The position numbers and the translations under genes are program-made. Positions 6,536 to 54,362 of a stretch of 64,000 nt of DNA are shown here, piece by piece. Within the stretch, counting starts at the first letter, position 1. Each line of letters opens with the position of its first letter. Origin of the DNA: an uncultured Actinomycetota bacterium. GTDB lineage: Bacteria > Actinomycetota > Actinomycetes > Mycobacteriales > Cryptosporangiaceae. The notes under the pieces are model-generated. The model saw only the letters and a list, made by a program, of their open reading frames with translations. It did no database searches and was not told where the DNA came from. The stretch is from NCBI GenBank assembly GCA_963746095.1, contig CAVVAL010000006.1:45158-109157 (forward strand). The letters run 5' to 3'.

Positions 6536-6587
6536 CGGTTTGGGCGACATCTTCGCGGTTATAGCCGAGAAGATGTCGCCCAGAGCG
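6536..6587. repeat. Palindromic intergenic element copy 1 (TTTGGGCGACATCTTC-loop-GAAGATGTCGCCCAGA)
   Basis: Perfect ~20-bp arms around the loop TTATAG. Lies between convergent ptsI (+) and the Cys-rich protein gene (-). Confidence 0.9.
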
Positions 6588-6608
6588 GAGCGCTTGCGCG
6601 GGGGCGGG

Positions 6609-8658
6609 TCAGCCGAGGTGGGCGTTGGCGATCGTCTCGCGCAGGGTCGAAGCGGCGCCGATCTTGGTCCACTGGCGCTGGGTCCAGACGTGCAGGCTCC
6701 AGCCGTCGCGGGTCGCGTAGGCGAGCACCCGCTCGTACTGGCTGGCCAGCTCGCGGAGCATCGCCTCGACGCCGGTCTCCGCCTCGACCGCGCGGCGGCG
6801 CTGGGGCGGCTGCAGCACCTCGGTGCGCTCGACGTCGTGCTCGATCGCCCCGATCCGCTGCGGCAGCGACGCGATCACCCTGCCGACGGCGTCGCCGAGG
6901 GTCAGGTCGATCTCCGGCGGCGCGTATCTGCTGGGCGTCCGGCGGTACGCGACCGCGACGCCCCAACGCGTCACGCCGCGCGGATCCGTGGCCACGGCGA
7001 TCTCCAGCCGGGCGTCGATGCCGCCGACCACCCTCATCAGGGCCTCGACCGGCGTGTCCCCGGGCGGCTGGACGAAGAAGATCACCCGTCCGCCCGGACG
7101 CCCGGTGGTGAGCCGGGCCAGGTACTCGGCGATCACCTCGCGCGCGTCGGTGAGGTCGGTGGCGAAGACGCCGTCCCTGGCCAGCGCGCCGACCGTGCGG
7201 ATCCCGTGGCTGCACGAGCCATTCGGGATCGGTGCCGAACTGCTCGGCCCACGCGGCCGCGGTCAGCTCGCGCGGCACCCGTGCGCACCGGACCCCATGG
7301 TCGTTGACGAAGAACGTCACCTCGGGGCGCGGTCCGACCGCGAGGTTGGTACTCACGCCGCGCCCGTCCGGACCGATCAGCGTCACGACCGCGCCAAGGT
7401 GCACCAGCCTGGTGTCGTCGCAGCCGGAACAGCGGGCGGCGGGGGCGCGACCGACGCCGGCACAGCGCGGGCAGTCCGCCGTCGGCTGTTCGCCGAGGTG
7501 CGTGCAGGAGCAGTCCTGCCAGGCGATGCCGGACGCGCACCGGGCGCACCGCTCGCGCGGGATCGGCGTGCCGACCGCGCTGGACTCCGGCATCGGCTCG
7601 GCCCGGTCGAGGACGCGCTCGATGGTCGACCGTACCTGGCCGGTCTGCTGGGTGGTGAGGATCTCGCGCTCCTCGGCGACCTGGAGCGGCGACACGTGCC
7701 ACCGGCCGTCCCGCCAGGTGGCGCTGCCGCCGGCGGCGTCGACCGCGGCGGCCCGGACGGCCTGCTCGACCTCGCGCAGCGACCAGGCGGCGTTGGACTC
7801 CCGGTTATTCGGCACCGGCGGGCGGGACACGACCCAGTGCCCCTCGGCCGTGGTGATCGACTTCATCTGCTCGACCAGTTCCCCGGCCGTGGCGCCGACG
7901 ATGGCGTCCTGGAACGTGAGCGGGCCGGCGTACCAGCACTGACCAGGCCGGATGGCGGCGCCGGGCACCTCGTACCCGATCGACCAGTAGCTGTCGACGA
8001 GCCGGACCACCAGGTCGAGCTTGGCCGCGCTGGCGACCAGCCGCAGGTCACCGAAGCGACCCTCGGGGTCGACCTGGGGGCGGACCCCGGCCGGATAGCC
8101 GACATACAGGTGCCAGCGCCGGCGGCCCGCCCACTCCGCGATCGCCGCCTCTTCGACGGCCGCGCGGACCGGCGTGGGGGCCTCGTCCTGCCAGTGCTGC
8201 GGCAGGAAGATCGGCATCGCCACGTCGTCGCGGCGCAGCGGCTGGTCGAGGCTGTCGTAGAGGGTGTCCACGCCGACCTGCTCGGCGAGGTCACGGACGG
8301 CGGGCGTGAGGTCGATGATCCGGCGGGTGCGCTTCACCGGCCACGGCGTGATGTCGTACGCACCCGGCACCACCTGCACCGATGCGCTCTGGCCGGTGAC
8401 CGCGTTGACGACCGTCAGCACGCCCTGGGCACGGAGCTGTCCGCTCTGCCGGCACGGAAAGCACATCACCGTGGTCTCGCCGGTGCCCTGGCACAGCTCG
8501 CAGTCGGCGTACGGCTCGCCGTCGGAGAGCAGACCGGTGCCGCTGGTCAGGAACGTGTTGCCGTTGTGCCTGCACACGCAGGCAGTGATGCGGAGCCCCA
8601 ACCCGGCGCAGGCGGGGCAGGCAATGAGGGCTGGTGTCGCCCCGGCCTGCTCTGGCAT
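6609..8658 (-). CDS. Hypothetical ~680-aa protein with two clusters of DnaJ-type CxxCxGxG zinc-finger-like motifs and no J domain; frameshift near 7200
   Basis: N-terminus CPACAGLG, CELCQGTG, CFPCRQSG; mid-protein CARCASG, CPRCAGVG, CSGCDD. ORF 6559..8727 goes Arg-rich after ...EWLVQPRDP, while ORF 6609..7136 continues it in another frame (RTVGALARDGVFATDLTDAREVIAEYLARL...), so a 1-nt indel is implied. Confidence 0.6.
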
Positions 8659-8998
8659 CTGACCTCGTCCACTGACCCCGCCGTCATGGACGGCCGACAC
8701 GGTCGCCCGGCAGGCCAGCCTCCGCAAAGCAGTGGGGGCGGACGCAGCGTGCCGGGTGAATGCTTCACCGTAGCGAACGCGAGTGACATTTGGGTGCGGT
8801 GTGACACGAAAGTGATGCTAAGAAGGCGTGCTCAGGGGCAAGACGCCCGTTCTCCTCCGTGCACTGAAGTGTGCTCGGCGGCCGGTGCGGCCGCGCGTGC
8901 GTTTCGCGGGCAGCAGTCGGCCGCCGGGCGAGAGTCGCCGGCCGCCGGCACCGGGCCGCGCCGGCCGGGGCCGCGCGCTCGAGCGGCGCCGAACCGAG

Positions 8999-14208: not shown

Positions 14209-15076
14209 TCAGCTGTGCGTGGCGACGCTTCGCTGAGCGAGCACGGTGCGGATCGCCGCCGAGCCGACGCCGCCCAGCAGGACGGTCGCGACCAGGATCA
14301 GCAGGCCGATTCCGCCGCCGACACTGGTCACCTCGGTGCTCCGGCCGGCCACGTTCTCCTTGCCGGAGGCCGACTCCTCGGGCGTCACCTCGCCCGGGTC
14401 CTGGCTCGCCGAGCCAGCCTCCTCGGTGGCCGTCGGCAGATCGGCGCTGGCCATGCCGCCGCGGGCGACCGGGCTGCGGCCGAGCGACGGCGGGCTCTGC
14501 GGTGCGCCAGGTGACGACCACCGGAGGTAGCTGTCCACCGGCCGGCGTGGACGCCCCCGGGCCGGGCACGGACGGCACGCCCGGGTTACCTGGGGTGCCG
14601 GGCTGGCTCGGGCCGGGCTGACTCGGTTGGGTCGGCGCGGCGGTCGGCGGGGTGGTGCGCGGGGCCGCGGCCACGTTGACCGTGCCGGTGGGCGAGGTGA
14701 GGGTGCCGACCAGCGGGATGTTCAGCGCGGCGGCGCTGGCCTTCATCTGCTTGGCGGACGACGCGCCCTGGAACGTGAAGGTCCGGCTCGCGCCCTTGGC
14801 CAGCTGGTACGACTGGCCGCCGAGGCTCAGCGTGAGCGGCACGCTGGCCCCGTTCACGAACGTCAGCCGGCCACCGGACGGCACGCTCACCGCGGTCGGC
14901 GTGACCGCGAGGCTGTCCAGCAGCCCGAGCAGGCTGATGCCCTTGAAAGTCATCGTGGGCGCGGGTGCGGGTTCGGCGGCGGCGGCCGGCGACGCGATGA
15001 ACGCGCCGATGCTGAGCGAGCTGAGCGTTAACACGCCGAGAGTGGCGGCGGCGCGGCGCACTCGCGTGGCCATGGT
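14209..15076 (-). CDS. Secreted, C-terminally membrane-anchored Pro-rich protein; frameshift near 14540
   Basis: Signal peptide MATRVRRAAATLGVLTLSSLSIGAFIASPAAAA, a Pro-rich linker (PTQPSQPGPSQPGTPGNPG), then a second frame ending in a TM anchor (GGGIGLLILVATVLLGGVGSAAIRTVLAQRS). Confidence 0.5.
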
Positions 15077-19568: not shown

Positions 19569-21108
19569 CTCGCTCCTACGTCCTGGGCCGCGCTCGGCTC
19601 GGAGACGGCCGACGGCTCGTCCAGCTCGGGCAGGTGGGCCGCTGGCGGTGCCGGTTCGTCCACCAGCACGCCGCCCTCCGGATCGTCCGAACCGTCGGCG
19701 CGCACCACGTCCAGCTCCGGATGCAGGATCTCCCGGACCACCAGCCCGCAGAGCACGGCTACGGCCACCCAGCGCGCCAGCCCGATCATGGCGAACCACT
19801 TCTCCGGCATCAGCGACTTGCCGCCGGCCGTGCGGAGCAGGATCTGGTAGAAGCCGAAGAAGTAGGCCAGCTCGCACGCCTGCCAGGCGAGGAACGCGCC
19901 CCATTTCGGCCTGGCCAGCACCGCGAGCGGCACCAACCAGAGCACGAACTGCTGCGACCACACCTTGTTCGTGAGCAGGAACGCCGCGACCACGAGGAAC
20001 GCCACCGCCGCGAGCCGAGGTGGCCGCGGCGCCAGGAAGATCAGCGCCGCGATGCCGACGCAGGCGACCGCGAGCAGGGCGTACGTGAGCAGGTTGAGGT
20101 GATCGACGTTCTCCGGCCTGGACAGGTCGGTGAAGAACGGGAGGCCGACCTGGCCGTCACCGGTCGGGAAGTGCGCGCCGATGTACCAGAGCGTGCCCCA
20201 GTCGACGCCACGGTCGCTGTTGAACGACCAGAACCTCATCCAGGCGTCCGGCGCCAGCAGGTAGACCAGCGCGTTCGGCACGGTCCAGGTGAGCAGCGCG
20301 GCGCTGAACGTCACCGCGAAGTCGGGCATCCGCTTGCGCCGGATGCAGAGCAGCAGCAGCGGCCCGAGCAGCACGACGGGATAGAACTTCGCCGCGATCG
20401 CGAGGCCGAGCAGCGATGCCGGCCCAGCCCGGCGCGCGTTTCGACCAGAAGTAGAGCGCGAGCGTGGCGAGGCCGACGGTGAACAGGTCCCAGTTGACCG
20501 AGGCGGTGACGAAGAGCGCGGGCGCCAGCGCGACCATCGCGCCGTCCCACGGCCGGCGCGGTCTCATCCGGACCACCGCCCAGACCGCCAGCACGCCGAA
20601 CAGCCCGAGCACCAGGGCGTTCAGGTCGTAGAAGAGCTTCGGCTGGTTCAACGGGCCGCCCTCGGCCAGCCCCAAATCGGCCAGGCTTGGGCAGCAGCGT
20701 CTGGTTCACCCATTCGGACGTGCCGAGCGCGTGCACCGGAAGGCCGAGCACGCCCATGAACGCGCCGGTCAGCACCGGGTACTCGACCGGGTGGTCGAGG
20801 TAGGGAACCTTGCCCTCGTTCAGGCCTTCGGCGAAGTAGAGCGCGAGCACGTCGGTGTAGCAGTGCTTCTTGTACTGGACGTTCTCGACCCATTGGCCGT
20901 CCCGGCAGGGTGACTTCTGCACCCAGCTGAAGGCCAGCGCCACGCAGGCGAGCGCGAGGATCACTCGCATCGGCGTCCAGACGCGCCGGTTCAGGCGAGC
21001 CCGGTCCCCGATGGGGCCACCGATCGCCTCGGAGAGCCCGGCGACCACTGGGTCGGAGTGGCTGGGCAGGTCAAAGTCCGCGGCGGGCGGTCGGGGGCGC
21101 TCGATCAC
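19565..21108 (-). CDS. DUF2029/GT87-like membrane glycosyltransferase; two frameshifts (~20400, ~20680)
   Basis: Three consecutive minus ORFs read as one protein: MIERPRPP...VLALYFAEGLNEGKVPYLDHPVEYPVLTGAFMG / LAVWAVVRMRPRRPWDGAMVALAPALFVTASVNWDLFTV / ...LVPLAVLARPKWGAFLAWQACELAYFFGF. Its TGA stop overlaps the ATG of the downstream gene (ATGA). Confidence 0.6.
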
Positions 21109-25106: not shown

Positions 25107-26187
25107 ATGGGTTCTGTACGCGTAGCCATCGTTGGCGTCGGCAACTGTGCCGCGTCGCTTGTGCAGGGCGTGGAGTACTACCGCGACGCCGACCCGCAGG
25201 CGCGCGTGCCTGGGCTCATGCACGTCAAGTTCGGTGAGTACCACGTCAGCGACGTCGAGTTCGTCGCCGCGTTCGACGTCGACGCCAAGAAGGTCGGCCT
25301 GGATCTGGCTGACGCCATCGGCTCGAGCGAGAACAACACGATCAAGATCGCCGACGTGCCGCCCACCGGCGTCACCGTGCAGCGTGGCCACACCCACGAC
25401 GGGCTCGGCAAGTACTACCGCGAGACGATCACCGAGTCGGACGAGGCGCCGGTCGACATCGTCCAGGCCCTGAAGGACAACCGGGTCGACGTGCTCGTTT
25501 CCTACCTCCCGGTGGGTTCCGAGGTGGCCGACAAGTTCTACGCCCAGTGCGCGATCGACGCGAAGGTCGCGTTCGTCAACGCGCTGCCCGGTCTTCATCG
25601 CCTCGGACCCCGAGTGGGCCAAGAAGTTCACCGACGCCGGTGTCCCGATCGTCGGCGACGACATCAAGAGCCAGGTCGGCGCCACCATCACCCACCGCGT
25701 GATGGCGAAGCTGTTCGAGGACCGTGGCGTGCAGCTCGACCGCACGTACCAGCTGAACGTCGGCGGAAACATGGACTTCAAGAACATGCTGGAGCGGGAC
25801 CGGCTGGAGTCGAAGAAGATCTCCAAGACCCAGGCCGTCACCAGCAACCTGGAGCACGACCTCGGTGCCCGCAACGTGCACATCGGCCCGAGCGACTACG
25901 TGCAGTGGCTGGACGACCGCAAGTGGGCGTACGTCCGGCTCGAGGGTCGCGCGTTCGGTGACGTTCCGCTGAACCTGGAGTACAAGCTCGAGGTCTGGGA
26001 CTCCCCGAACTCGGCCGGCATCATCATCGACGCCGTCCGTGCGGCGAAGATCGCCAAGGACCGGGGCATCGGTGGCCCGATCCTCTCCGCGGCGAGCTAC
26101 TTCATGAAGTCCCCGCCGGAGCAGTACAACGACGACATCGCCCGCGAGCGGGTCGAGGCGTTCATCCGCGGTGACGTCGAGCGCTGA
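25107..26187 (+). CDS. ino1: myo-Inositol-1-phosphate synthase; frameshift (extra G) near 25592
   Basis: [25 protein letters not shown]...; the second half continues in ORF 25699..26187 ([51 protein letters not shown]...). Confidence 0.85.
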
Positions 26188-26213
26188 CCCACAACCTGAT
26201 CGCCGCTTTGGGC

Positions 26214-26265
26214 GACATCTTCGCGGCCCTGGCCGTGAGGATGTCGCCCAAAGCGCGTTACGGGG
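26214..26265. repeat. Palindromic intergenic element copy 2
   Basis: cgcTTTGGGCGACATCTTCGCGG-ccctgg-CCGTGAGGATGTCGCCCAAAgcg, between convergent ino1 (+) and the 26266..27064 gene (-). Confidence 0.9.
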
Positions 26266-27064
26266 TCAGTACGGCTCGGGGACGTGGACGGTGACGCAGT
26301 TGTTCGCGCCGTCGAAGGGTGCGCAGGCCGAGGTCTGGATCCAGCCGGTCAGGTCGTGCGCACCGAGGTCGGTGGTCTGGCCCGGGTCGCACTCCGAGCC
26401 GCTGAAGTTGAAGGTGGGGCTGGCCGTCTTGGCCGACACGCAGCCCGTCTCGCTGGTCGTCTTCTTCACCTGGGTGTGCGCGGAGCGCTTGTCGCCGGCC
26501 TTGTGCGAGCCCCAGCCGATGGCCTGCGCGCCACGGCGCCGCGCGCTGTAGGTGTAGTCGGTGGCCGAGTGGTACGACCAGGACGCGCCGGTGCCGTTGG
26601 TCCGCAGGCCGGAGTCGCCCACCGAGCTGGGGATGGTCTGGTACACGCACTTCTCCGGCGCGGCCTGCCCGTCGATCCGGCGGCAGGCGAGCGATCAGCA
26701 CGGAGCCGGAGAACTCCGGTGACTCGAACGTGATGTGTTTGCCGTTGCCGCAGATCGTCCGGTCCACGATGTAGGCGCCGGAGTAGAACATGACCACCGC
26801 GCAGCGGCCGTCCGAGCTGGTGTCCTTGAGCGTGCCGGACGCCTTGCGCACCCCGTTCACGTCGGTCGCGGTGGCGGTGAGCTCCATGCCGGGCACCTTG
26901 CCGGAGATCTCCAGGTTCTTCTGCAGGTTGTAGCCCCAGGAGGCGGACCAGCCGGTGCCGGAGGGCAGGGCCTGGGCGGGCGTGCCCGCGGCCACGGTGG
27001 CGGCCGCCGCCGCGACGGCCACGCCGGCGATCCGGGCCCAGGACGAGAACTTCGGTGCGCGCAT
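26266..27064 (-). CDS. Secreted hypothetical protein (signal peptide); frameshift near 26690
   Basis: N-terminus MRAPKFSSWARIAGVAVAAAAATVAAGTPAQA; the C-terminal half is in ORF 26266..26646 (Ser/Thr/Gly-rich, several Cys). Confidence 0.45.
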
Positions 27065-31222: not shown

Positions 31223-32750
31223 ATGAGCACTGCTGTCCTCATCGCCGTCGGCGGCGCCGTTCTACTCGTCGTCCTGATGGTCGCGCTGATCGTCAGCCGG
31301 CTGCGGGTGGCCAGCCCGAACGAGGCGTTCATCATCACCGGCCGCAAGGGCCGCGCGGTGACCAGCTCGGCCGGCGTCACCTCCACCGACCTGTCGGGCC
31401 AGAAGGTCGTGCTCGGCGCGTCCGTCTTCGTCATCCCGATCGTCCAGAAGCTGCACCGGCTCGACCTGTCCAGCCGGCGCATCCCGGTCGCGATCCGCGG
31501 CGCGGTGAGCGCCCAGGGCATCCGGTGCGACCTCGAAGGCGTGGCGATCGTCAAGGTCGGCGGCACCGAGGCGGCGATCCGGGCCGGCGCGCAGCGGTTC
31601 CTGGACCAGCAGCAGGGCATCGACCTCTTCACCTCCGAGGTGCTCGCCGGCTCGCTGCGCTCGATCGTCGGCCGGCTCACCATCGAGGAGATCATCAAGG
31701 ACCGGGCCGCGTTCGCCTCGGCCGTCGCGGAGGAGGCCGAGTCCTCGCTCACGAACCAGGGTCTCGTGCTGGACACCTTCCAGCTGCAGGACATCCAGGC
31801 CGAGGGCACGTACCTGCAGGACCTCGGCCGGCCCGAGGCCTCCCGGGTGCTGATGGACGCGGCGATCGCCGAGGCGCGCGCCCGCCAGGCCGCCGAGCAG
31901 GAGCGGATCCTCGCCGAGGAGGCCATCGCGGTCGCCAACCGGCAGCTCTCGCTGAAGCAGGCCGAGATCCAGGCCGAGATCGAGGCCGCCCGGGCCAAGT
32001 CCGCCGCCGCCGGTCCGCTGGCGCAGGCCGAGCGTGACCAGGTCGTCCTCGCCGAGCAGGAGAAGGTGGCCGCGCGGAACGCGTCGCTGACCGAGCGCCG
32101 GCTCGACACCGACGTGCGCAAGCCCGCCGACGCGGCCCGGTACCGGATCGAGCAGGAGGCCGAGGCGGCCAAGAACGCGGCCGTGTTCAAGGCCGACGCC
32201 GACCGGCAGACCACGATCGCCGCCGCGCAGGCCGAGGCCGAGCAGGCCCGACTCAGCGGTGAGGGCGAGCGGTCCCGGCGTGCGGCGCTGGCCGAGGCCG
32301 AGGCGATCGAGGGTGCCAAGCGCGGTGAGGCCGAGAAGGCCCGCCGGGTGGCCATCGCGGAGGCGGTCGAGACCGAGGGTGCGGCCGACGCGTCCGCGAT
32401 CCTCGCCAAGGGTCAGGCCGAGGCCGAGGCGATGGACAAGAAGGCCGCAGGCGTTCGCCACGTACGGCGAGGCCGCCGTGCTCGACCTGCTGGTGAAGAT
32501 GCTGCCGGAGGTGGTCCGGGCCGCGTCCGAGCCGCTCTCGGCGGTCGACAAGATCACGGTCATCTCGACCGACGGTGCCAGCGCGCTGACCAAGCAGGTC
32601 ACCTCGGGCGTGGCGCAGGGGCTCCAGCTCGGCTCCGACCTGACCGGCGTGGACCTGGCCGGGATGCTGGCCCGGATCGGCGGCGGTCACACCGAGGCCA
32701 AGCCGGCCGCCAAGCCGGTGCTCGAGAAGAACAACGTCGAGCCCGTCTGA
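31223..32750 (+). CDS. SPFH/band-7 (flotillin/YqiK-like) protein; frameshift near 32450
   Basis: N-terminal TM helix, SPFH domain, and a long Ala/Glu/Gln coiled-coil (AEQERILAEEAIAVANRQLSLKQAEIQAEIEAARAK...). The C-terminus resumes in ORF 32259..32750 (...VDKITVISTDGASALTKQV). Confidence 0.8.
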
Positions 32751-32799
32751 TCCTCAGCGCCGCACGCGGACGCCGCTGACGCGGCACCGCGACACCCGC

Positions 32800-32851
32800 C
32801 GCTTTGGGCGACATTTTCTCGGTTATAGCCGTGAAGATGTCGCCCAAAGCG
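32800..32851. repeat. Palindromic intergenic element copy 3
   Basis: cgcTTTGGGCGACATTTTCTCGG-ttatag-CCGTGAAGATGTCGCCCAAAgcg, between the convergent flotillin (+) and pentapeptide-repeat (-) genes. Confidence 0.9.
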
Positions 32852-32935
32852 CGTTGTGGGGGCGGGGCGGGCGGGCGCCACGTTGTGGGGACGGCGGCGG
32901 TCGTGGGGCCGGCGGGGCGGCGGCCGCGTTTGGGG

Positions 32936-34607
32936 TCAGGCGGGGTCGGGGGCCGATTCCGGCTCGGGGGCTGGTTCCGGCTCGGGTTCTGGGGCGGCGG
33001 CCGGCGGGTCGGCGGGCTCGGCGGTGGTCGGGGTGAGGCGGGTGCGGCCGGGCTGGTCCGGGTCGGGGCCGGCGGACCAGCCGGTCGGCCAGATGCGTTC
33101 GAGGTGCCCGTCGTCGCCCTCGATCCGGGCCTGGTCGAAGTAGGCCGGGCCGTGCAGGGTCGCGTCGTCGAACCGGGCCGAGCCGAAGAAGGTCGCCTGC
33201 TCGAACTGGGCGGAACCCTGGAACGCGGCGGCGCGGAACCCGGCATGGCCGTGGAACTCCGTGCCGCGGAAACCGGCGTCGCCCTGGAACGCGGTGGCCC
33301 GGAACCACGCCGCGTCCTGGAACGCCGCGCCGGTGAACGAGGTGTCCTCGCCGAACACCGCCTTCCGGAACAGCGCGATCCGGGCGAACGTCGACTTGTC
33401 GAACGCGGTGATCCGGCGCGCGGTGACCTCCTCGAACCAGGTGTCGCCGTCGAACCGCACCGACCGGAACCAGGCATCGTCGTCGAACGTGGCGTGCTCG
33501 AAGCGGGCCGCCTGGGTGAAAGTGGCGCGCTCGAACCGGGCCTCGCCGCGGAACGTCGCCGCCTCGAAGTGCGCCGTGCCGTCGAAGGCGGCCTGGACGA
33601 ACCGCACCGGGCCGTCGAACGTCGCGCCGGCGAACGAGACGGAGTCGGCGAACGTCGCATCGTCGAAGCCGGCCACCCCGTGGAAGGTCGCGCCGGTGAA
33701 GATGGCCCTGCGCACGGCGGCCCGGCGGAAGTCCAGGTCGACCAGGGTCGCTCTGGCCAGGTCCAGATCCAGGTCCGGCCAGAACTCGGACTCCGGTGCC
33801 TCGTCCCCAAGGCGGCCGGCCGGCCCGGCCTGGTCACCGGGCGGAGCCTGGTCGCCGGGTGCGGCCTGGTCGTCGGGCGCGGCCGGCCGGCGCAGGTGCC
33901 GGATGAGCACCCGCTGCGCGGTCAGCCGCACCTCGCGTTCCTCCCGGCGGCCGGCGAACCGCTCCTCGGCCTCGATCGCGTACCGGCTCTCCGCCTGCTG
34001 GCCCGTGAGCTGCTCCGGGGGCGGCGTGAACGGCATCCGCAGGTACGCGCAGAGCAGGTTGACGATCGTCTGCCGATGCTCGGGGCTGCCCTGCGCCAAC
34101 CGTTCGAGCGCGTAGATGCCGGCGAAGCGGACCGGCGCCTTGGCGCTGCCCAGCTGGTCGGCGGCCTTGGTGTACAGCTCGGTCACCCGGCGCTCGGCGG
34201 CGTCGTAACGGGTGCTGGCGGCGACCTCCTGCTGCAGCGTCCGGTTCGCCTCGTCCACCTGGCGGCGGTGTTCCTGGGTCGCCTCGGCGAGCTGGTTCGC
34301 GGCTTCGGCCAGCTCGTTCGCGGCCTCGGCGACGCGCTGCCGGCGGTACGCCATCACCAGCGCGACGATCGCGCCGAGCCCCGCGGTCACCGCGAAGCTC
34401 ATCTTCAGCACGTTGAACAGGTCGTCGACGGTGAGCTCGCTCTTGCGCTGCACCCCCGGCCAGCCCAGTACGAGGAACGCCGCCGCGGTGACCACCAGCA
34501 GCAACGCCACCGCGCCGCCGATCGTCCAGGCCAGCGCCGTGCGGATCGGCATCAGGCGTAATCGGCGGGCGGTCTCGGTCAACGGCAGGGGTGATCGATC
34601 CGTCATG
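32936..34607 (-). CDS. Membrane-anchored pentapeptide-repeat protein with coiled-coil region
   Basis: Start MTDRSPLPL (ATG 34607); TM helix TIGGAVALLLVVTAAAFLVLGW; coiled coil; then ~40 pentapeptide repeats (ATFHGVAGFDDATFADSVSFAGATFDGPVRFVQAAFDGTAHFEAATFRGEARF...). Ends in a PEPEPAPEPE-type acidic/Pro tail. The 1020-aa listed ORF is a GC-rich upstream read-through. Confidence 0.7.
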
Positions 34608-34690
34608 AGCGCAGGGTAGCCAGGACCACCGGCCCGGTGGCCGAACCGCGCCGGACGGCCGGGCCGGGGCCGGCGCGGTAGGGCGGGACG

Positions 34691-36043
34691 GTGAGCACAG
34701 GCCCTAGGCTTGGGCGCATGTCGCCGTCCGGGCACCACCTCCGTGCCATCCTGCTCAGGCGGGACTTCCGGCGACTCTTCGCCACCCGTCTGAGCAGCCA
34801 GTTCGCCGATGGAATCTTCCAGGCCGGGCTGGCGGGGTCGGTGCTGTTCAACCCCGACCGGCAGACCGAACCGCTCGCGGTGGCCCTCGGGTTCGCCAGC
34901 CTGCTCCTGCCGTACTCGCTGGTAGGGCCGTTCGCCGGCGTCCTGCTGGACCGGTGGAGCCGGCGGAACGTGCTGGTCGTCGCCAACCTGATCCGTCCGG
35001 CGCTGGTCCCGTTCATCGCGGCGATGGTCTGGTTCGGCCGGGAGGACGGCCTCTTCATGCTGTTCGCCCTGCTCGCGATCGGTGTGAACCGGTTCTTCCT
35101 GTCCGGCCTGTCCGCCTCGCTGCGGCACGTCGCCGACCTGGACCACCTGGCCACCGCCAACTCGCTCTCCACCACCAGCGGCTCGATCGTCTTCTCGCTC
35201 GGCGTCGGCACCGCGGTGGGGCTGCGCGCGCTGACCGGCGCGGACGACCACGGCTACGCGATCGTCACGCTCTGCGCGGTGGTCGGCTACCTGGTCTCGT
35301 CGGCGCTGGCGGCCGGCTTCCGACGCGATCAGCTCGGCCCGGACGCCACCGAGCTGGCCAGCCGCTCGACCGTCCGCGACGTGGCGCGCGGGCTCAAGCT
35401 GGGCCTTCGGCACCTGCAGGAGCGCCGCGGCGCCGGCCAGATGCTCCTGGTCACGAGCGCGCACCGGCTGTTCTTCGGCATCCTGATGATCGCGACCCTG
35501 CTGCTGTACCGGAACTACTTCGAGGCCGACGGGTTCTTCCGCACCGGCGCGGCCGGGCTCGGCCAGACCATCGCGGCCAGCGCGATCGGCGCGTTCATCG
35601 CGGCGGCGGTCACCCCGTGGGCGATCCGGACCCTGGGCGCGCGGGTATGGATCACCGTGTTGCTGCTGGTCACCGCCGTGGTCGAGGCGATCCTCGGGGC
35701 GCCGTACTCGACCAAGGCCCTGCTGCCGGCCGTGCTGCTGATCGGGCTCGCGGCGCAGGGCATCAAGATCGTGGCCGACACCACGCTCCAGGCCGAGTGC
35801 GACGACGAGTTCCAGGGCCGCGTGTTCTCCCTCTACGACATGACCTTCAACGTGAGCCTGGTCGGCGGCCTGCTGCTCGGCGCCGTGACGCTGCCGACCA
35901 CCGGCAAGTCGTACGCGGTGCTCGGGTTCGTCGCGGCCGGCTACGCGTGCACGGCGATCTGGTACGCGTGGGCCTCCGGCCGCTGGCGCCGCACGCACCC
36001 CTCACCGATCGAGCCCGCGGCGATCGCGGGAGCCATCCGATAG
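34691..36043 (+). CDS. MFS transporter
   Basis: 12-TM profile; 450 aa; typical MFS loops (LLDRWSRRNVLV). Confidence 0.7.
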   Translation: MSTGPRLGRMSPSGHHLRAILLRRDFRRLFATRLSSQFADGIFQAGLAGSVLFNPDRQTEPLAVALGFASLLLPYSLVGPFAGVLLDRWSRRNVLVVANLIRPALVPFIAAMVWFGREDGLFMLFALLAIGVNRFFLSGLSASLRHVADLDHLATANSLSTTSGSIVFSLGVGTAVGLRALTGADDHGYAIVTLCAVVGYLVSSALAAGFRRDQLGPDATELASRSTVRDVARGLKLGLRHLQERRGAGQMLLVTSAHRLFFGILMIATLLLYRNYFEADGFFRTGAAGLGQTIAASAIGAFIAAAVTPWAIRTLGARVWITVLLLVTAVVEAILGAPYSTKALLPAVLLIGLAAQGIKIVADTTLQAECDDEFQGRVFSLYDMTFNVSLVGGLLLGAVTLPTTGKSYAVLGFVAAGYACTAIWYAWASGRWRRTHPSPIEPAAIAGAIR

Positions 36044-36798: not shown

Positions 36799-36850
36799 CC
36801 GTTTGGGCGACATCTTCACGGTCATAGCCGAGAAGATGTCGCCCAAATCG
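36799..36850. repeat. Palindromic intergenic element copy 4
   Basis: ccgTTTGGGCGACATCTTCACGG-tcatag-CCGAGAAGATGTCGCCCAAAtcg, between the convergent DUF402 gene (+) and cca (-). Confidence 0.9.
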
Positions 36851-36983
36851 GGGGTCGGCGGTCGCCGCCGGGGCGGCGACGGCGGGGCCACGGGCGGCGG
36901 TGCTCAGGCCGGGCGGTGCTCAGGCCGGGCGGTGCTCAGGCCGGGCGCCGCCCAAGCCGGGCGGTGCCCAAGCCGGGCGGTGC

Positions 36984-38466
36984 TCAGGCGGAGGGCGGGG
37001 CCTCGGACGGCGGTGCCTCAGCCAGCGCCGGCTGGATGCCCTCGGCGGCGGCCCAGCGGAGCAGCTCGGCCTCGGCCTCGTCCCGGTCCAGCGGCCCGCG
37101 GTCGAGCCGCAGCTCCTTCAGGTGCTTCCAGGCCCGGCCGACGATCGGACCCGGCGGCACGCCGAGCAGCTCCATGATCGCGTTGCCGTCCAGGTCCGGC
37201 CGCACCGCGCGGAGGTCCTCGTCGGCCTGAATGCGGGCGATCCGCTCCTCCAGCGCGTCGTAGGTCGCGGCGAGCGCGGCGGCCCGGCGACGGTTGCGCG
37301 TGGTGCAGTCGGAGCGCACGAGCTTGTGCAGGCGCGGCAGCAGCTCCTCGGCGTCGGTCACGTAGCGGCGCACGGCCGAGTCGGTCCACTCGCCGCGGCC
37401 GTAGCCGTGGAACCGCAGGTGCAGGAAGACGAGGTTGGCGACGTCCTCGATCACGTCCTTCGGAAAGCGCAGCGTGCGCATCCGCTTGCGGGTCATCTTC
37501 GCCCCGACCACCTCGTGGTGGTGGAAGCTGACGCCGCCGCCCTCCTCCAGCCGCCGGGTCGCCGGCTTGCCGATGTCGTGCATCAGCGCGGCCATCCGGA
37601 GCACGAAGTCGGGGCCGTCCTCCTCCAGGCCGATGGCCTGCTCGAGCACGGTCAGCGTGTGCTCGTAGACGTCCTTGTGCTGGTGGTGCTCGTCGATCTC
37701 CAGCTGCATGCCGGGCAGCTCGGGGAGGATGTACCCGGCCAGCCCGGTGTCGACAAGTAGACGTAGACCGGCGACCGGGTCGGCGCCCTTGATCAGCTTG
37801 GTCAGCTCGTCGCGCACCCGTTCCGGCGTGATCCGCTCGATCTCGCCGGCCATCGCGGTCATCGCGGCCACCACCTCGGGCGCCACCTCGAACCGCAGCT
37901 GGGAGGCGAACCGCGCCGCCCGCAGCATCCGCAACGGATCGTCGCCGAACGAGTCCTCGGGCTTGCCGGGCGTGCGGATCACCCGGTCGGCGAGGTCCTG
38001 GACGCCGCCGTAGGGGTCGGTGAAGTCGTGGCCGGGCAGCGAGACGGCCATCGCGTTGACCGAGAAGTCGCGGCGCACCAGGTCGTCGGCGAGCGAGTCG
38101 CCGTACTGCACGATCGGGTTCCGGCTGACCCGGTCGTAGGCCTCGGCGCGGTACGTGGTGATCTCCAGCCGCAGCCCGCCCCGGCTCAGGCCGACCGTGC
38201 CGAAGTCGATGCCGATCGTCCAGATCGCCTCGGCCCAGCCCTTGACCAGCTCCAACACGGCTTCCGGCCGGGCGTCGGTGCAGAAGTCGAGGTCGTCGCC
38301 GAGCCGGCCGAGTAGCGCGTCCCGCACCGACCCGCCGACCAGATGGAGTTCGTAGCCCGGCCGCGGCGAACCGGCGCCCCAGCTCGTCGGCGACCGGAGA
38401 GACGCGAAGCAGCTCCGCAACGGCGTTGCGCTGCGCGGAGCTGAGAGAGGAAGGACCATCGACCAC
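36984..38466 (-). CDS. cca: CCA tRNA nucleotidyltransferase / poly(A) polymerase family with HD domain; frameshift near 38340
   Basis: HLVGGSVRDALLGR...GTVGL...RRDFSVNAMAV (Pol-beta nucleotidyltransferase head), then an HD domain (MHDIGKP...HHHEVVGAKM). The first 37 aa (MVDGPSSLSSAQRNAVAELL...) are in the neighbouring frame. Confidence 0.85.
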
Positions 38467-43212: not shown

Positions 43213-43595
43213 GACGACCCCCACCAGCCCGTTGACGCGCCGCGGTCCGGCCCGCGTCCACGGGCAGCTTAGTGTCTCGGGCGGTCCCATCGGCCGTCCG
43301 AAACGGGCAAGGTTCACGTCCCGTCAAGGCATCCCGCAACGGTTTGGCCGCTGTGTCGAGAACGACGAATCGGTGAGCGTACACCACTCGCGCAACCCAC
43401 CTTAGGGATTGCGCATTGCGGAAATTAATGTAGGGAAATATCGGACATTGATTCTCTAACTACGCCGATAAACAACGTAACGAATATCTCAAGCTTGTAA
43501 CGCGCGGCGGTTATGACCGATGATCCCGTCGGCACTGCGCGCACCGGGCGCGCACGCCGCCGGAGCACACGCCGAGTCCTACCCGCGCTCCGACG

Positions 43596-43770
43596 GTGAC
43601 CGACGAGTTTCACCACACGGGTAGGAGCGGGGGACCCAATGGTTCCTCGGAGACGGCGGCTGGCTCAGGCCGGTACGCATCTCCTCGGGGTGAAGTCGCG
43701 CGAGCGACCGGGCACCTACACCTTCCCGCCCGAACCCGACAGCTGACCTCGTAGGCGTGCAGGAAGGACC
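43596..43770 (+). ncRNA. Candidate ydaO-type (c-di-AMP) riboswitch in the NlpC/P60 leader
   Basis: Leader contains GAGCGGGGGACCCAAUGG, CUCGGGGUGAAGUC and CCCGAACCCGACAGCUGACCUCGUAGGCG, which I recall as ydaO core elements. An AT-rich promoter island lies upstream (43410-43500). The riboswitch is known to front cell-wall hydrolase genes in actinobacteria. Confidence 0.5.
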
Positions 43771-44536
43771 GCTTGTGCATTCGGTGTTATCTCACCGTCG
43801 CCCGCCAGCAAAAACTCGCAAGATCGGCATCATCGTCTCGATGCTCGCCGGACTCCTCGTCATCGGTGCGATCGGCGCCCCGTTGGCTCTCGCGCAGGCC
43901 GGATCGTGGGTCGTCGTAGGACCCAACCGGACCATCTACCAGGGCCAGGCCGCTGGCCTCAACGCCGCCTCCGGCGGCGGCGCGCTCCGCACCCAGGGCA
44001 TGACCATCGCCCTGCACCAGCAGACCGCCAAGGGCTGGCAGGCCGTCGGTACCCGCAAGGTCGACGCCAAGGGCCACGCCAGCTTCACCGTCCGCCCGAA
44101 GGCCACCACCGTCTTCCGGGTCGCCCTGATCGGCAACCTGAAGCTGGGCACGAGCTACTCGAAGCCGGTCAAGATCTCGGTTTCGGCGGCCGGCGTGGCT
44201 GTCGTCGCCGAGGCGGCCAAGCACCGCGGCAAGCCGTACCGCTACGGCGCGGCCGGTCCGAGCTCGTTCGACTGCTCGGGCTTCACCCAGTTCGTCTACA
44301 AGCGCTTCAACAAGTCGCTGCCGCACAGCGCGACCCAGCAGGGCAAGTACGGGGTCTACGTGGCCAAGGCCACGGCTCGACCCGGTGACTTGATGCTGTT
44401 CGGCTCGCCGGGCCGCTACACCCACGCGGCGATCTTCGCGGGTAACGGTCAGATGTGGGACGCCTCGACCTCCGGGCAGCCGGTGGCTCTGCGCAAGATC
44501 TGGAGCCAGAACTACGCGGTTCGTCGCCTCGTCTGA
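43757..44536 (+). CDS. NlpC/P60-family peptidoglycan endopeptidase, secreted
   Basis: Signal/TM segment IGIIVSMLAGLLVIGAIGAPLALAQA; catalytic block YGAAGPSSFDCSGFTQFVYKRF...YTHAAIFAG. A GTG at 43775 with RBS GGAAGGA is the more likely start. Confidence 0.85.
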   Translation: MQEGPLVHSVLSHRRPPAKTRKIGIIVSMLAGLLVIGAIGAPLALAQAGSWVVVGPNRTIYQGQAAGLNAASGGGALRTQGMTIALHQQTAKGWQAVGTRKVDAKGHASFTVRPKATTVFRVALIGNLKLGTSYSKPVKISVSAAGVAVVAEAAKHRGKPYRYGAAGPSSFDCSGFTQFVYKRFNKSLPHSATQQGKYGVYVAKATARPGDLMLFGSPGRYTHAAIFAGNGQMWDASTSGQPVALRKIWSQNYAVRRLV

Positions 44537-44561
44537 GGAACTGCACGTCCGTTTTTGCACA

Positions 44562-44610
44562 CGAATGCCGCGTATCGGTCATCCGATACGCGGCATTCGT
44601 GGTTTGTTGG
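44562..44610 (+). terminator. Intrinsic terminator (17-bp perfect stem, 4-nt loop, GUUUGUU tail)
   Basis: CGAATGCCGCGTATCGG-tcat-CCGATACGCGGCATTCG then tggtttgttgg, 26 bp after the NlpC/P60 stop. Confidence 0.8.
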
Positions 44611-46904: not shown

Positions 46905-48975
<2,071 letters not shown>

Positions 48976-49352: not shown

Positions 49353-49557
49353 CGCCTGACCCCGCAGCGGGTTGGTAAGGCCCGCGATTTGGCGGGAGTA
49401 CGCTGATATGCAATCGTGGCCGGCCGGGTCCCTCGTGGACCCGGCCGGAATGTGTTGCGGGTACGTAGAAACTGTTGTGGGCAAAGAGATTTCCAGTTCG
49501 CTGGGGCCGGGTACCGAACTTCGCCCCGGCCGGGTATCGAGAGGAGCGACCAGGCGC

Positions 49558-50719: not shown

Positions 50720-50731
50720 GACGCAACCCTG

Positions 50732-50783
50732 CGATTTGGGCGACATCTTCTCGGCTATCCGCGAGAAGATGTCGCCCAGATCC
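50732..50783. repeat. Palindromic intergenic element copy 5
   Basis: gATTTGGGCGACATCTTCTCGG-ctatccg-CGAGAAGATGTCGCCCAGATcc, between convergent cwlM (+) and the 50817..51454 gene (-). Confidence 0.9.
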
Positions 50784-50816
50784 GCTTCAGGGGCGGGGCC
50801 GAAGGGCCGCCGCAGG

Positions 50817-51454
50817 TCAGACCTCGGAGGACGAGCGGGTGGCCCCGCCGAGCACGATCGGCGGGCTCATCGAGCCGAGCAGCTTCTCCAACGCGTACTC
50901 CACGTCGGACTTCCAGGACAGCGCGGTGCGCAGCTCCAGCCGCAGCCGCGGGTACCGGTGGTGCGGGCGGACCGTCTTGAAGCCCACCGAGAGCAGGTAG
51001 TCGGCCGGCACCATGCAGTTCCTGGTCTCCCACTGCAGGTCGGCGAAGGCCTCGATGGCCTTGATGCCCCGCTTGGTGAGGTCCTTCGCGACGCCCTGGA
51101 CCAGCATCCGGCCGAGCCCGCCACCGGCGAACTCCGGCACGATGTGCGCGGTCATCAGCAGCGCCGCGTCCGCGCTCACCGGGCTGGTCGGGAAGGCCAC
51201 CGACCGCGGCACGTACGCCGGCGGGGCGAAGAGCACGTAGCCGGCGGGCACCCCGTCGACGTAGACGAGCTTGCCGCAGGAGCCCCACTCCAGCAGCGTC
51301 GCGGAGAGCCAGGCCTCCTTCTCCAGGTCGGGGCAGCCGGCCTCAGCGCCCGCTCCCGGGCCACCGGATCGAGCTCCCAGAAGATGCACTTGCGGCATCG
51401 GCTGGGCAGGTCTTCCAGAGTGTCGAGGGTCAGATTGACCAAACGCCGGGACAT
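50817..51454 (-). CDS. GNAT-like acetyltransferase-fold protein (Rv3916c position); frameshift near 51350
   Basis: N-terminus MSRRLVNLTLDTLEDLPSRCRKCIFWELDPV is in ORF 51176..51454. The body carries HIVPEFAGGGLGRMLVQGVAKDLTKRGIKAIEAF (acetyl-CoA binding loop). Confidence 0.5.
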
Positions 51455-51654
51455 TACGGGCGCACCTCACAGCGGGTGAGGACGGGAGCGACGAATCGCG
51501 GCACCGGGCGACTCCCCATCGGCGCGTACATGTCGGCAGGCGAACCTTCTCATGGTATGGCCAACATCGCCGACACGGAAGAGGGCGTGCCGAGCTCGGT
51601 ATGCTCGGCGACGCTCGATGCCGTCATGCCGTCTGCGGCGACGGAGGTGGCTGC

Positions 51655-52959: not shown

Positions 52960-53077
52960 CGGATACTGAGATGACGCGGCCGGGGCACCTCGGCCGCCCG
53001 CAAGGGGAGCGAGAGCGGCGCGGTGGAAAGATCTTTGTGCGGTACGCACGGCTGCTGGCGGACATCGGCGGGCCGGC

Positions 53078-54056
53078 GTGAGTAAGCGGGTGCTGGTTCT
53101 GGCCGGCGGGCTCTCCTACGAGCGCGACGTCTCGCTCCGTTCCGGCCGCCGGGTCGTGGAGGCGCTGCGCCGCGCCGGCGTGGAGGCCACCGTCCGCGAT
53201 GCCGACTCCGGCCTGCTCGCCGCGCTGGACGCCGAGCGGCCGGACGCCGTGGTCATCGCGCTGCACGGTGCGATCGGCGAGGATGGCGCGCTCCGCGGCG
53301 TGCTGGACCTGGTCGGCGTGCCGTACGTCGGCCCCAGCGCGCAGGCGAGCCGGGTCGCGTGGGACAAGCCGTCCGCCAAGGCCGAGCTCCGCGAGGCCGG
53401 CATCCCCACGCCCGACTGGGTGGCGCTGCCGCACGAGACCTTCCGCGAGCTCGGCGCGCAGTCGGTGCTCGACCGGATCATCGACCGGCTCGGCCTGCCG
53501 CTGATGGTCAAGCCGGCGCAGGGCGGTTCCGGGCTGGGCGCGCACGCGGTGCACCTCGCCGAGGATCTGCCGGCCGCGATGGTGGGCTGCTTCGGATACG
53601 GCGACACGGCGCTGATCGAGCGATTCGTGGACGGCACCGACGTCGCGGTCACGGTCGTCGACTCGGGCAACGGACCGGTGGCGCTGCCGGCCGTGGAGAT
53701 CGTGCCGGCCGACGGCGTCTACGACTATGCCGCGCGCTACACCGCCGGCACGACGACCTGGCACGCGCCGGCCCGGCTGGCGCCCGCGATCGCGCCAGAA
53801 GGTGGCGTCGATCGCGGTCGCCGCGCACCGGGCGTTGGCGCTCGGCGATCTGTCCCGGGTCGACCTGCTCGTGTCGCGGGACGGCGGGGTGCACGTCCTC
53901 GAGGTGAACGTCTCGCCCGGCCTGACCGAGACCAGTCTGCTGCCGATGGCGGTGCAGGCCGCCGGACTCGATCTCGGGGTGCTGCTGCGCGATCTGGTCG
54001 ACCTCGCGATCGCGCGATCGGCGTCAACTCCCCGAACCGCCGCTCACTCGAACTGA
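53078..54056 (+). CDS. ddl: D-alanine--D-alanine ligase; frameshift near 53790
   Basis: MSKRVLVLAGGLSYERDVSLRSGRRVVEAL...IALHGAIGEDGALRGVLDLVGVPYVGPS...MVKPAQGGSGLG (ATP-grasp). C-terminus in ORF 53727..54056 (...LSRVDLLVSRDGGVHVLEVNVSPGLTETSLLPMA). Confidence 0.8.
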
Positions 54057-54310
54057 TTTTTCGTCGACCCGAGGGCCGGGCCACGCGATGCCGGCGCGCC
54101 ACTGAAGCCGCATTTCGGACACCGCTCTGACCTGGGAAAACGTCGTCAGAGGTCCACAGAGGCCATAACTCGGCCCTGGCCATACTCCGGTATGGCTCCA
54201 AAATGGGCATGTTTCGCGGGCATCGCGGATCGCCCGCAAATCGGGTCATTTTCGCGCCGTCTTGCCACAGTGGACAGTTGTTTCGCCGCGATCGGGGCGC
54301 CCCGACCCCG

Positions 54311-54362
54311 CGGTTTGGGCGACATCTTCTCGGTCCTGGCCGGGACGATGTCGCCCAAAGCG
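54311..54362. repeat. Palindromic intergenic element copy 6
   Basis: cggTTTGGGCGACATCTTCTCGG-tcctgg-CCGGGACGATGTCGCCCAAAgcg, between convergent ddl (+) and the GNAT gene (-). Confidence 0.9.

Follow-up and report, generated by a model that had tools for sequence, protein, structure and literature searches.

A 52-nt near-perfect palindrome with the consensus CGCTTTGGGCGACATYTTCNSKG-YTATAR-CMSNGAARATGTCGCCCAAAGCG occurs six times in the window, the 64-kb stretch of DNA analysed here, which derives from an uncultured soil actinomycete whose nearest named relatives are Cryptosporangium (~81% identity in the CCA enzyme). We conclude, with somewhat more confidence than doubt, that the element is a lineage-specific dispersed repeat of the REP/TRIT type that functions at the RNA level as a bidirectional hairpin at gene 3' ends. 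It is most likely a new family of an already known kind, to which the REPs of E. coli and the TRIT motif of mycobacteria belong. Transcription termination in high-G+C actinobacteria is a matter of debate: few canonical terminators are present, Rho is dominant, and the sequence conservation of TRIT is unaccounted for. The element represents a second family with TRIT-like habits, unrelated-looking and located outside Mycobacterium, and a neighbouring genome (L090) provides a lead to a third.

Copies of the element and their placement at gene ends

A search of the window for the core TTTGGGCGACATCTTC with up to three mismatches returned 12 matches, arranged as six inverted pairs, compared to 0.25 in shuffled sequences. 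The six copies that had been reported by a sequence-only reading of this DNA are therefore real and far beyond chance. Inverted-repeat detection placed copies 2-6 among the longest short-range palindromes of the window, while copy 1, which is absent from the 25 inverted-repeat pairs listed, rests on the core-match evidence. The arms defined in this way are 77-95% complementary overall, with 87-95% in copies 2, 3, 5 and 6 and 77% in copy 4, where detection extended the arms to 35 nt. The 16-nt core arms have 0-1 mismatch apiece. The palindromes, described earlier as perfect, are thus near-perfect, and the consensus has the ends CGC-TTTGGG...CCCAAA-GCG. Five of the six reported positions were right; copy 2 had been placed at 26214-26265 and is corrected in Table 1. 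Likewise, the reported distance of 10-60 bp after a stop codon fits some of the gaps in Table 1 and not others.

Table 1 Positions of the six copies in the window and the genes on either side
Copy	Position	Gene on one side	Gene on the other side
1	6536-6587	ptsI (+)	unannotated minus-strand ORF 6609-7136, its stop 21 nt from the element
2	26204-26255	ino1 (stop 26187), 16 nt past its stop	minus-strand ORF 26266-26694, 10 nt from its stop
3	32800-32851	flotillin (Band_7), 49 nt past its stop	minus-strand pentapeptide-repeat gene, 84 nt from its stop
4	36799-36850	DUF402, 34 nt past its stop	cca, 133 nt from its stop
5	50732-50783	cwlM-like amidase, 12 nt past its stop	minus-strand GNAT, 33 nt from its stop
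6	54311-54362	ddl (stop 54056), gap 254 nt; convergent gap of 444 nt in all	minus-strand GNAT (stop 54501), gap 138 nt

The flanking genes agreed with their earlier assignments wherever they were tested: a Pfam scan identified PtsI, Band_7/flotillin, pentapeptide, DUF402, the CwlM-like amidase and the two GNATs, and CCA was also borne out. The same scan had no match for the ORFs that had been called Cys-rich and secreted. The PEP-utilizers_C domain of PtsI ends at ~6390, no stop is present in any frame from there to copy 1, and the ptsI ORF, as assembled, reads through the copy. Because frame jumps also occur within the ino1, ddl and flotillin genes of the window, the missing ptsI stop probably reflects an indel in the assembly. 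Between copy 4 and the cca stop is a 16-nt tandem array (36896-36989).

All six copies lie in convergent intergenic regions, as had been noted. Segmentation of the window by coding strand gave approximately 10 convergent and 9 divergent switch points, with 6/6 copies at convergent ones. The remaining convergent junctions in the window (three or four) fold at -38 to -47 kcal/mol, which is not distinct from the background of -36.7 +/- 5.1 kcal/mol, and we rejected the idea that they carry hairpins of their own. An exceptional hairpin is therefore not obligatory at a convergent junction.

A metagenome scan revealed at least 120 further loci, which contain ~130 distinct copies with identical spacing in all. 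These copies were picked with a pattern that fixed 22 bases of the outer arms, so conservation of the outer arms is not judgeable from this set. Nearly all are single, and two copies within ~30-70 nt of each other were found only in three contigs (L111, L181 and L193). The link to gene 3' ends and convergent junctions that the sequence-only reading had drawn from six copies holds in these ~130 independent copies too. An ORF stop faces 192 of 248 element sides at a median gap of 19 nt (124 within 30 nt), and none of the 192 facing ORFs overlaps a copy. By coding-strand call, 62 junctions were convergent, 32 co-directional and 3 divergent, and 33 of the 35 one-sided cases faced a 3' end; by ORF-based call, 64 were convergent, 31 one-directional and 4 lacked a facing gene. 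Overall, ~65% of copies are convergent, 31% co-directional and 3-4% divergent. The earlier statement that no co-directional junction carries the element is thus correct within the window and fails in the metagenome, where about a third of the junctions are co-directional.

The sequence immediately upstream of the element has a C-over-G skew of +0.5 that decays over ~100 nt and is absent at ordinary gene ends, such that a C-rich, G-poor stretch precedes the hairpin on both strands.

A scan of the genome collection with the loose pattern GGGCGACAT N14-30 ATGTCGCCC gave 88 matches, most of them chance or unrelated hairpins, and a true copy only in L046, an uncultured Actinomycetota MAG. No copies were found in a scan of viral contigs, and BLAST of the consensus against plasmids and phages gave no match. 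Rfam searches, at the gathering threshold on the window and at an E-value threshold on 20 loci, returned only sub-threshold matches to microRNA-type hairpins, and a literature text search for the element sequence retrieved unrelated primers only. The element thus matches no family in Rfam, which has no TRIT entry, and no sequence in the searchable literature, in keeping with the sequence-only reading, which had not recognised it as a described family. Novelty of kind does not follow, as REPs (PMC3733652) and mycobacterial TRIT (PMC3152330) are close analogues. Short-read contigs frequently end at the element, a repeat that breaks short-read assemblies.

Folding and covariation

Consistent with the earlier proposal that the same long hairpin forms on either strand, folding energies of 92-mers spanning the element range from -47 to -62 kcal/mol (z -4.5 to -9.8). 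The predicted RNA is a 23-bp stem with a 6-nt YUAUAR loop, at about -40 kcal/mol. Across the aligned copies, 92.3% of cells are paired compared to 85.7% in shuffles, and the covariation score is 0.173 compared to 0.072, a value matched by 0/500 shuffles. The variable positions 10/31, 14/27, 15/26 and 16/25 covary in a manner that preserves pairing. Pair 15/26, for example, reads C-G in 64 cases and G-C in 58, and pair 10/31 is C-G, U-A or G-C inside both subfamilies. Outer-arm variants are compensated as well (GGGTGACAT/ATGTCACCC and GGGCGGCAT/ATGCCGCCC).

The sense strand is defined in 31 copies, those flanked by a gene on just one side. On this strand, transition mismatches in the stem are G.U in 19 cases and C.A in 6 (p = 0.015). 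This modest excess points to RNA as the relevant form; a transcription-linked C-to-T mutation bias could be an alternative source of it. The loop positions 18/23 and 19/22 showed no orientation bias in one-directional copies.

Orthologous sites, mobility and known repeat families

Orthologous copies share a junction even between genomes with flank identities of only 81-84% (16-19% divergence), which does not fit the earlier suggestion that the element has recently spread. Copy 2 has an orthologue in metagenome contig L175. Compensatory double changes separate the orthologous copies of L137 and L149 (at 10/31 and 16/25) and those of L102 and L181 (at 10/31). The spacers around orthologous copies gain or lose tens of bases while the hairpin persists; its persistence across diverged sites looks like purifying selection. 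Compared to L102, one junction in L181 has acquired a second copy, of another subfamily. Relatives at ~75-80% nucleotide identity have no element across a homologous 21 kb. In L211, the junction matching copy 4 is only 7 nt long, and the ~2-kb stretch that contains the pentapeptide gene at copy 3 (about 32725-34700) does not align to this genome.

A possible, though in our view unlikely, alternative is that the element is a selfish non-autonomous palindrome, similar to a REP/REPIN or a MITE, that is copied by a transposase encoded elsewhere. Its placement at 3' ends would then result from purging of other insertions, and effects on transcripts would be incidental. The high number of near-identical copies (6 in 64 kb, ~130 distinct), the restriction to one lineage with relatives lacking the element, the different palindrome family in one relative, the copy gained in L181 and the contigs that end at the element are all in keeping with mobility, as is the bias to convergent and unidirectional junctions that REPs share (PMC3733652). 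Enrichment at convergent junctions is also expected of a selfish insertion that survives only where it is harmless. However, target-site duplications were absent at every boundary tested: direct repeats of 3-8 nt showed no excess over 26 x 26 boundary combinations, the largest reaching 5%. Furthermore, no transposase or RAYT-like motif was found in 420 kb, the genes between two copies are ordinary, and orthologous copies have been kept, with compensatory changes, across 16-19% flank divergence. The element also has no GTAG or CGTC head and occurs mostly as singletons rather than as REPIN pairs. Finally, a mobile palindrome is compatible with a host function.

Two more specific origins find no support. 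Derivation from a DDE transposase, as in MITEs, does not fit for want of a target-site duplication; MITEs are likewise short, non-coding, inverted-repeat sequences with many dispersed copies, but the element additionally lacks internal sequence between its repeats, and its stem positions covary. Insertion into older hairpins would predict pairing between the flanks, yet true flank pairs (-25.15 kcal/mol) and swapped pairs (-24.42 kcal/mol) hardly differ (p = 0.1); as a general feature, one flank is rich in C and the opposite one in G.

Two known systems come close to the element. Like the REP/REPIN-RAYT sequences of E. coli, Pseudomonas and other bacteria (PMC3733652, PMC2817692, PMC3116915), it is a high-copy extragenic palindrome whose family is specific to a species or lineage and which lies preferentially downstream of genes, at convergent and unidirectional junctions, and a role as terminator and mRNA stabiliser is proposed for both and has been demonstrated for REP325. 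By contrast, a REP is an imperfect palindrome that spans 20-40 nt, has GTAG or CGTC as its head, often belongs to an inverted pair (REPIN/BIME) and is linked to a RAYT gene, whereas the element is 52 nt long, near-perfect and mostly single, with neither tag in its consensus; a motif search of six-frame translations found no RAYT (Y1 transposase), a weak test on a weak sample of only 420 kb. The second, and the nearest analogue described so far, is the "Tuberculosis Rho-independent terminator" motif, TRIT (Gardner et al. 2011, PMC3152330). Compared by description, both are palindromic hairpins of high-G+C actinobacteria, conserved in sequence and structure and mostly bidirectional, with many dispersed copies at gene termini, no classical U-tract, confinement to one lineage and conservation that hints at a factor. 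However, reports of TRIT are confined to Mycobacterium, and the motif mostly overlaps the coding-sequence end (~-8 from the stop), whereas the element lies at a median of +19 nt past the stop with 0/192 overlaps. A third comparison is to the "I-shaped" or long-stem 3' hairpins of actinobacteria (PMC13613805, PMC12207403), which are also very stable long stems past genes, without a U-tract, in Rho-dominated genomes. These are unique to each gene, in contrast to the element, in which one sequence is reused at many genes.

Candidate modes of action

The sequence-only reading had argued that the element is not a canonical intrinsic terminator, and we agree: T does not exceed 27% at any of the 14 positions past the stem, so there is no U-tract, and a terminator scan of the window did not flag the copies. 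Intrinsic termination by mycobacterial RNA polymerase in vitro requires a U-tract (PMC3993855), and the hairpin alone therefore probably does not release RNA polymerase. Actinobacterial 3' stem-loops are long, have no U-tracts and reach the top scores for Rho dependency (PMC13613805), and Streptomyces has the same 3' stem-loop pattern (PMC12207403). In the bidirectional 3'-end hairpin that we favour, the element would be transcribed from either of two converging genes, and the RNA would fold into the hairpin, usually 1-30 nt past the stop codon. There it could act as a pause or roadblock that leads to Rho-assisted or collision termination, and it could block 3'-to-5' exonucleases, such that the mRNA 3' end would be fixed and protected in both directions. 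We infer each of these parts, RNA as the active form, involvement of Rho and stabilisation of transcripts, from sequence features. E. coli REP325 has been shown to combine termination and stabilisation, as a partly Rho-dependent terminator that also stabilises mRNA (bioRxiv 10.64898/2026.03.23.713779), and such a role is proposed for mycobacterial TRIT.

Sequence conservation in the element exceeds what folding needs, as the earlier reading had stated. The near-invariant positions are TTT, GGGCGACAT, TTC, G17/C24 and the loop TATA, and folding does not explain the invariant lower stem, TTTGGGCGACAT, or the loop. One account of these positions is a sequence-specific RNA-binding or processing factor that reads the lower stem and the YUAUAR loop and directs factor-dependent termination or processing, which on its own we consider improbable. 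The loop is itself palindromic and therefore both transcripts would show the same loop, and the authors of the TRIT study drew the same inference for their motif (PMC3152330). A similar apex (GTTATAGG or CCATAGG) is seen in the separate palindrome family of L090, a likeness that rests on two copies only. However, no candidate factor is known, recent common ancestry or gene conversion among copies could produce the conservation, and the conservation of the outer arms in the large set was imposed by the search pattern. A broader version is quite unlikely in our judgement: a dedicated putative factor would read the lower stem and YUAUAR loop, actinomycete lineages without U-tract terminators would use bidirectional hairpin terminators that are sequence-specific and factor-dependent, TRIT, the family described here and that of L090 would be parallel cases, and spread would occur without target-site duplication or RAYT.

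There is little probability, in our estimate, that the element instead acts as DNA, either as a cruciform-prone palindrome or as a site between converging genes for a protein such as gyrase or a nucleoid protein, a role put forward for certain REPs of E. coli. Positive supercoils accumulate between converging genes, which would suit such a role. The element is palindromic through its centre, and its G+C-rich arms enclose an A/T core (CTATAG), a layout that may favour cruciform extrusion; its lower stem and centre are near-invariant. A dimeric DNA-binding site would not require compensatory change, yet variable stem positions change compensatorily and frequently, orthologous copies included. 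We therefore disfavour a palindrome bound by protein as duplex DNA, which the earlier reading had suggested, and with it an operator or parS-like site. A cruciform is compatible with the covariation, but the excess of G.U over C.A on the sense strand points to RNA, and the tight spacing past stop codons and the 31% of co-directional copies better fit a feature of transcripts.

Together with TRIT and the lead in L090, the family suggests that actinobacteria have repeatedly come to use a single conserved palindrome as the 3'-end hairpin of many genes. Its invariant and freely covarying positions, and orthologous sites that carry or lack the element, offer material for comparative searches for whatever recognises hairpins of this kind. 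The element could also become a small bidirectional 3'-end module in actinomycete engineering, provided that its function is confirmed. The ino1 locus points to functional equivalence of different sequences at one site: the 80 nt past the ino1 stop contain a strong hairpin in each of six related genomes (z -3.7 to -9.3), with unrelated sequences, formed by the element described here, by another repeated palindrome in L090 and by a unique hairpin in the other four genomes.

Palindromes at convergent gene ends in the window

The six inverted pairs account for 12 occurrences of the 16-mer TTTGGGCGACATCTTC in the window at up to 3 mismatches, compared with 0.25 in shuffled sequence. Copies 2-6 rank among the window's longest short-range inverted repeats, and copy 1, absent from the 25 inverted-repeat pairs listed, is supported by the 16-mer search and by alignment. 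When aligned, all six have near-identical arms of 20-23 nt that flank a centre of 6-8 nt. The copies described by the sequence-only reading are real and five of its positions were right, the second being ten bases off. The observation is therefore genuine, with minor corrections only.

Table. Copies of the element and other features of the window
Feature	Position	Context	Support or description
Copy 1	6536-6587	beyond ptsI end	TTTGGGCGACATCTTC search and alignment
Copy 2	26204-26255	after ino1 stop	TTTGGGCGACATCTTC search and inverted repeats
Copy 3	32800-32851	pentapeptide gene to right, minus strand	TTTGGGCGACATCTTC search and inverted repeats
Copy 4	36799-36850	adjoins CCA-adding enzyme gene	TTTGGGCGACATCTTC search and inverted repeats
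Copy 5	50732-50783		TTTGGGCGACATCTTC search and inverted repeats
Copy 6	54311-54362		TTTGGGCGACATCTTC search and inverted repeats
Tandem array	36896-36989	between copy 4 and cca stop	5.9 copies of 16-nt unit GGCGGTGCTCAGGCCG
c-di-AMP riboswitch	43591-43771	upstream of NlpC/P60 gene	Rfam, 58 bits
Hairpin	44560-44601	after NlpC/P60 gene	perfect 19 bp
Three parS sites	57169-57286	within 120 bp	near-consensus (GTTTCACGTGAAAC), one mismatch each to the parS 16-mer

Segmentation of the coding strand by codon-position G+C gave about ten convergent and nine divergent switch points in the window (G+C ~70%). The convergent ones hold 6/6 copies, bearing out the claim that all lie at convergent junctions. 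Given roughly 50 genes, we infer that six random junctions would all be convergent with a chance of the order of 10^-4 to 10^-5. Of the named flanking genes, PtsI, flotillin, pentapeptide protein, DUF402, CwlM-like amidase, and two GNATs were confirmed by Pfam scan and CCA by homology search, and the ORFs called "Cys-rich" and "secreted" had no match in the Pfam scan. The proposed distance of 10-60 bp after the stop was too tight, as measured stop-to-element gaps were 10-254 nt. At copy 1, all frames are free of stop codons from where the PtsI domain ends up to the element (about 6390-6535), most simply explained by an assembly indel. Frame jumps within the conserved genes ino1 (~25480-25570), flotillin (32260-32440), and ddl (53600-53770) indicate that the assembly is noisy, probably of long-read origin; indel errors are probable, making ORF-based annotation of the window unreliable. 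The copies indeed have no U-tract and were not flagged in a terminator scan, which detected no excess of canonical terminators over shuffles across 11 kb. No notable hairpin was found at the window's other convergent junctions.

The CCA-adding enzyme beside copy 4 has one 100%-identical match, followed by proteins from metagenomes (83-90% identity); among named genera Cryptosporangium comes closest (81-82%), and Micromonosporaceae proteins are at 71-78%. These matches identify the source as an uncultured actinomycete. In L211, a relative sharing a homologous 21 kb with the window, the intergenic gap of the copy 4/cca junction is only 7 nt. About 2 kb of the window (about 32725-34700), including the minus-strand pentapeptide-repeat gene, could not be aligned to L211, in which an MFS gene directly follows flotillin, so that copy 3 borders an insertion specific to the lineage. 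The hairpin after the NlpC/P60 gene has counterparts in L211 and two other relatives (L089 and L090), with bases changed and pairing kept. No parS sites were expected by chance, and the three found, together with the cwlM, murJ, cca, and thioredoxin genes, put the window close to the origin of replication and the parAB region.

Copies elsewhere and covariation of the stem

A loose-pattern scan of the genome collection yielded a sole true copy, in an uncultured Actinomycetota MAG (L046). A metagenome scan for TTTGGGCGACAT N18-26 ATGTCGCCCA yielded at least 120 loci; those listed came nearly all from two JGI samples and held at least about 130 distinct copies, with exactly equal spacing in almost all. 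The viral contigs, plasmids, and phages searched contained no element, the Rfam search proposed by the sequence-only reading matched no family, and no occurrence of the sequence was found in the searchable literature. The loose scan also returned long CCCnnnnGGGGCGACAT-loop-ATGTCGCCCCnnnnGGG hairpins (L007, L014, L020, L030, L053, L055, L058, L088, and others) from Planctomycetota, Bacteroidota, Acidobacteriota, and Verrucomicrobiota. These have the inner core GGGCGACAT in common with the element and differ in their outer stems; they may be a hairpin family of wide distribution, or the search pattern may have favoured them. In locus L128, two copies of the element bracket a 117-aa ORF of unknown function (204-769) and have the same immediate flanks (CCCCTTTCGCGC ... 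GCCGGAGGT), suggesting a duplicated repeat unit >52 nt or a small cassette bounded by the element.

The consensus is CGC TTT GGGCGACAT Y TTC N S K G - YTATAR - C M S N GAA R ATGTCGCCC AAA GCG, with hardly any variation in the lower stem or at the TTC/GAA step. GGGCGACAT was fixed by the metagenome search pattern, yet the six window copies conserve it just as strongly. By contrast, the opposing stem positions 10/31, 14/27, 15/26, and 16/25 vary freely with complementarity kept. Among the metagenome copies listed, 15/26 is C-G in 64, G-C in 58, and unpaired in 1; 10/31 is C-G, U-A, or G-C, and the states of the variable pairs are intermixed across both inner-stem subfamilies. Over the 23-pair helix, 92.3% of cells were paired compared to 85.7% in shuffles, double-change cells numbered 218 compared to 103, and the covariation score was 0.173 compared to 0.072, with 0/500 shuffles reaching the observed value. 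Covariation collapsed in all slid registers of the helix. It was not found at 18/23, indicating that the loop is the 6-nt YTATAR. A profile search recovered divergent copies with compensated outer-arm changes (GGGTGACAT/ATGTCACCC twice and GGGCGGCAT/ATGCCGCCC once) and a related subfamily distinguished by its inner stem. The mean folding energy of the 52-mers was -39.8 kcal/mol, and 92-mers from four window copies gave -47 to -62 kcal/mol on both strands.

Among the copies listed, 192/248 element sides face the stop codon of a coding-like ORF, at a median gap of 19 nt (<=30 nt in 124, overlapping in 0). Coding-strand calls were convergent for 62, co-directional for 32, and divergent for 3, with a 3' end faced in 33/35 one-sided cases; ORF-based calls were convergent for 64, one-directional for 31, and without a facing gene for 4. 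On both sides, the sequence just upstream of the hairpin, read in the direction in which the incoming gene is transcribed, is rich in C and poor in G (skew +0.5 within 10 nt, fading over about 100 nt), compared with almost no skew at gene ends without the element. A folding test revealed no specific mutual complementarity between the two flanks of a copy.

Orthologous junctions and the ino1 hairpin

Flank identity was 84% for the orthologous pair formed by window copy 2 and L175, 81% for L137/L149, and 82% for L102/L181. All three pairs retain the element, and the surrounding spacers gain or lose tens of bases. L137/L149 have compensated double substitutions at 10/31 and 16/25, L102/L181 have one at 10/31, and copy 2/L175 have a flipped G.U at 14/27; in L181, the same gap carries an additional copy of the other subfamily. 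No copy was found in the homologous 21 kb of L089, L090, and L211-L215 (~75-80% nucleotide identity), where the window has three. Together, the orthologous copies and the absence in these relatives indicate a family that is lineage-specific but not recent, contrary to the earlier suggestion of a recently spread repeat.

A strong hairpin lies within the 80 nt past the ino1 stop in the window and in L089, L090, L211, L213, and L214 (z -3.7 to -9.3), with sequences unrelated between genomes. In the window it is the element, which is also present at this junction in L175, a contig that terminates at the element and lacks the ino1 side. The L090 hairpin is another palindrome, GAAGTGTGCAGG...CCTGCACACTTC, with a similar apex (YATAGG), and four genomes have a unique hairpin. 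That place and structure are kept and sequence is not argues that the hairpin serves the 3' end of ino1 and that the repeat supplies it in the window. The L090 palindrome occurs just past gene ends at 14719-14768 and 20087-20136 (two copies only, in 21 kb), with apex GTTATAGG or CCATAGG, similar to the window family's YTATAG loop; L090, a related MAG, is without the element.

RNA form and relation to known repeats

In one-sided copies (n=31, transcript orientation), stem transition mismatches were G.U in 19 and C.A in 6 (p = 0.015), whereas the classes were balanced in convergent copies (23 vs 19); loop positions had no such strand bias. The G.U excess favours an RNA form, and mutation bias could contribute. 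The best-supported interpretation is a repeat of the REP/TRIT kind, functioning at the RNA level as a 3'-end hairpin in both directions. Transcribed from either direction, the element would fold at the gene's 3' end, where it could pause polymerase, with Rho-assisted or collision termination, and shield the transcript against 3' exonucleases. Because intrinsic termination by mycobacterial polymerase requires a U-tract (PMC3993855) and the element has none, we infer pausing of this kind, along with 3' exonuclease protection. The original interpretation is right in part: folding on both strands and position at gene ends support its bidirectional terminator or RNA-stabilising hairpin, and the missing U-tract agrees with its view that this is not a canonical intrinsic terminator. 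The element agrees with actinobacterial 3' ends, where stems are long, U-tracts are absent, and dependence on Rho is high (PMC13613805, PMC12207403), and its proposed role matches that of E. coli REP325 (bioRxiv 10.64898/2026.03.23.713779).

A selfish origin likely explains the spread of the element and leaves room for a host function. The element could conceivably have a cruciform or gyrase role. A protein-binding palindrome in duplex DNA, which the sequence-only reading had considered, is disfavoured by the covariation of stem positions.

On the REP/TRIT-like reading, the element forms a new family within an already known kind. Its closest analogue, compared by description, is the Mycobacterium TRIT, with 147 palindromic copies at gene ends conserved in sequence and structure (PMC3152330); TRIT overlaps stop codons, whereas the element copies do not. 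Membership among MITEs fails, as no target-site duplication was present at any boundary tested. REP/RAYT membership fails on two features, as the element has no GTAG/CGTC head and its copies are mostly not arranged in pairs.
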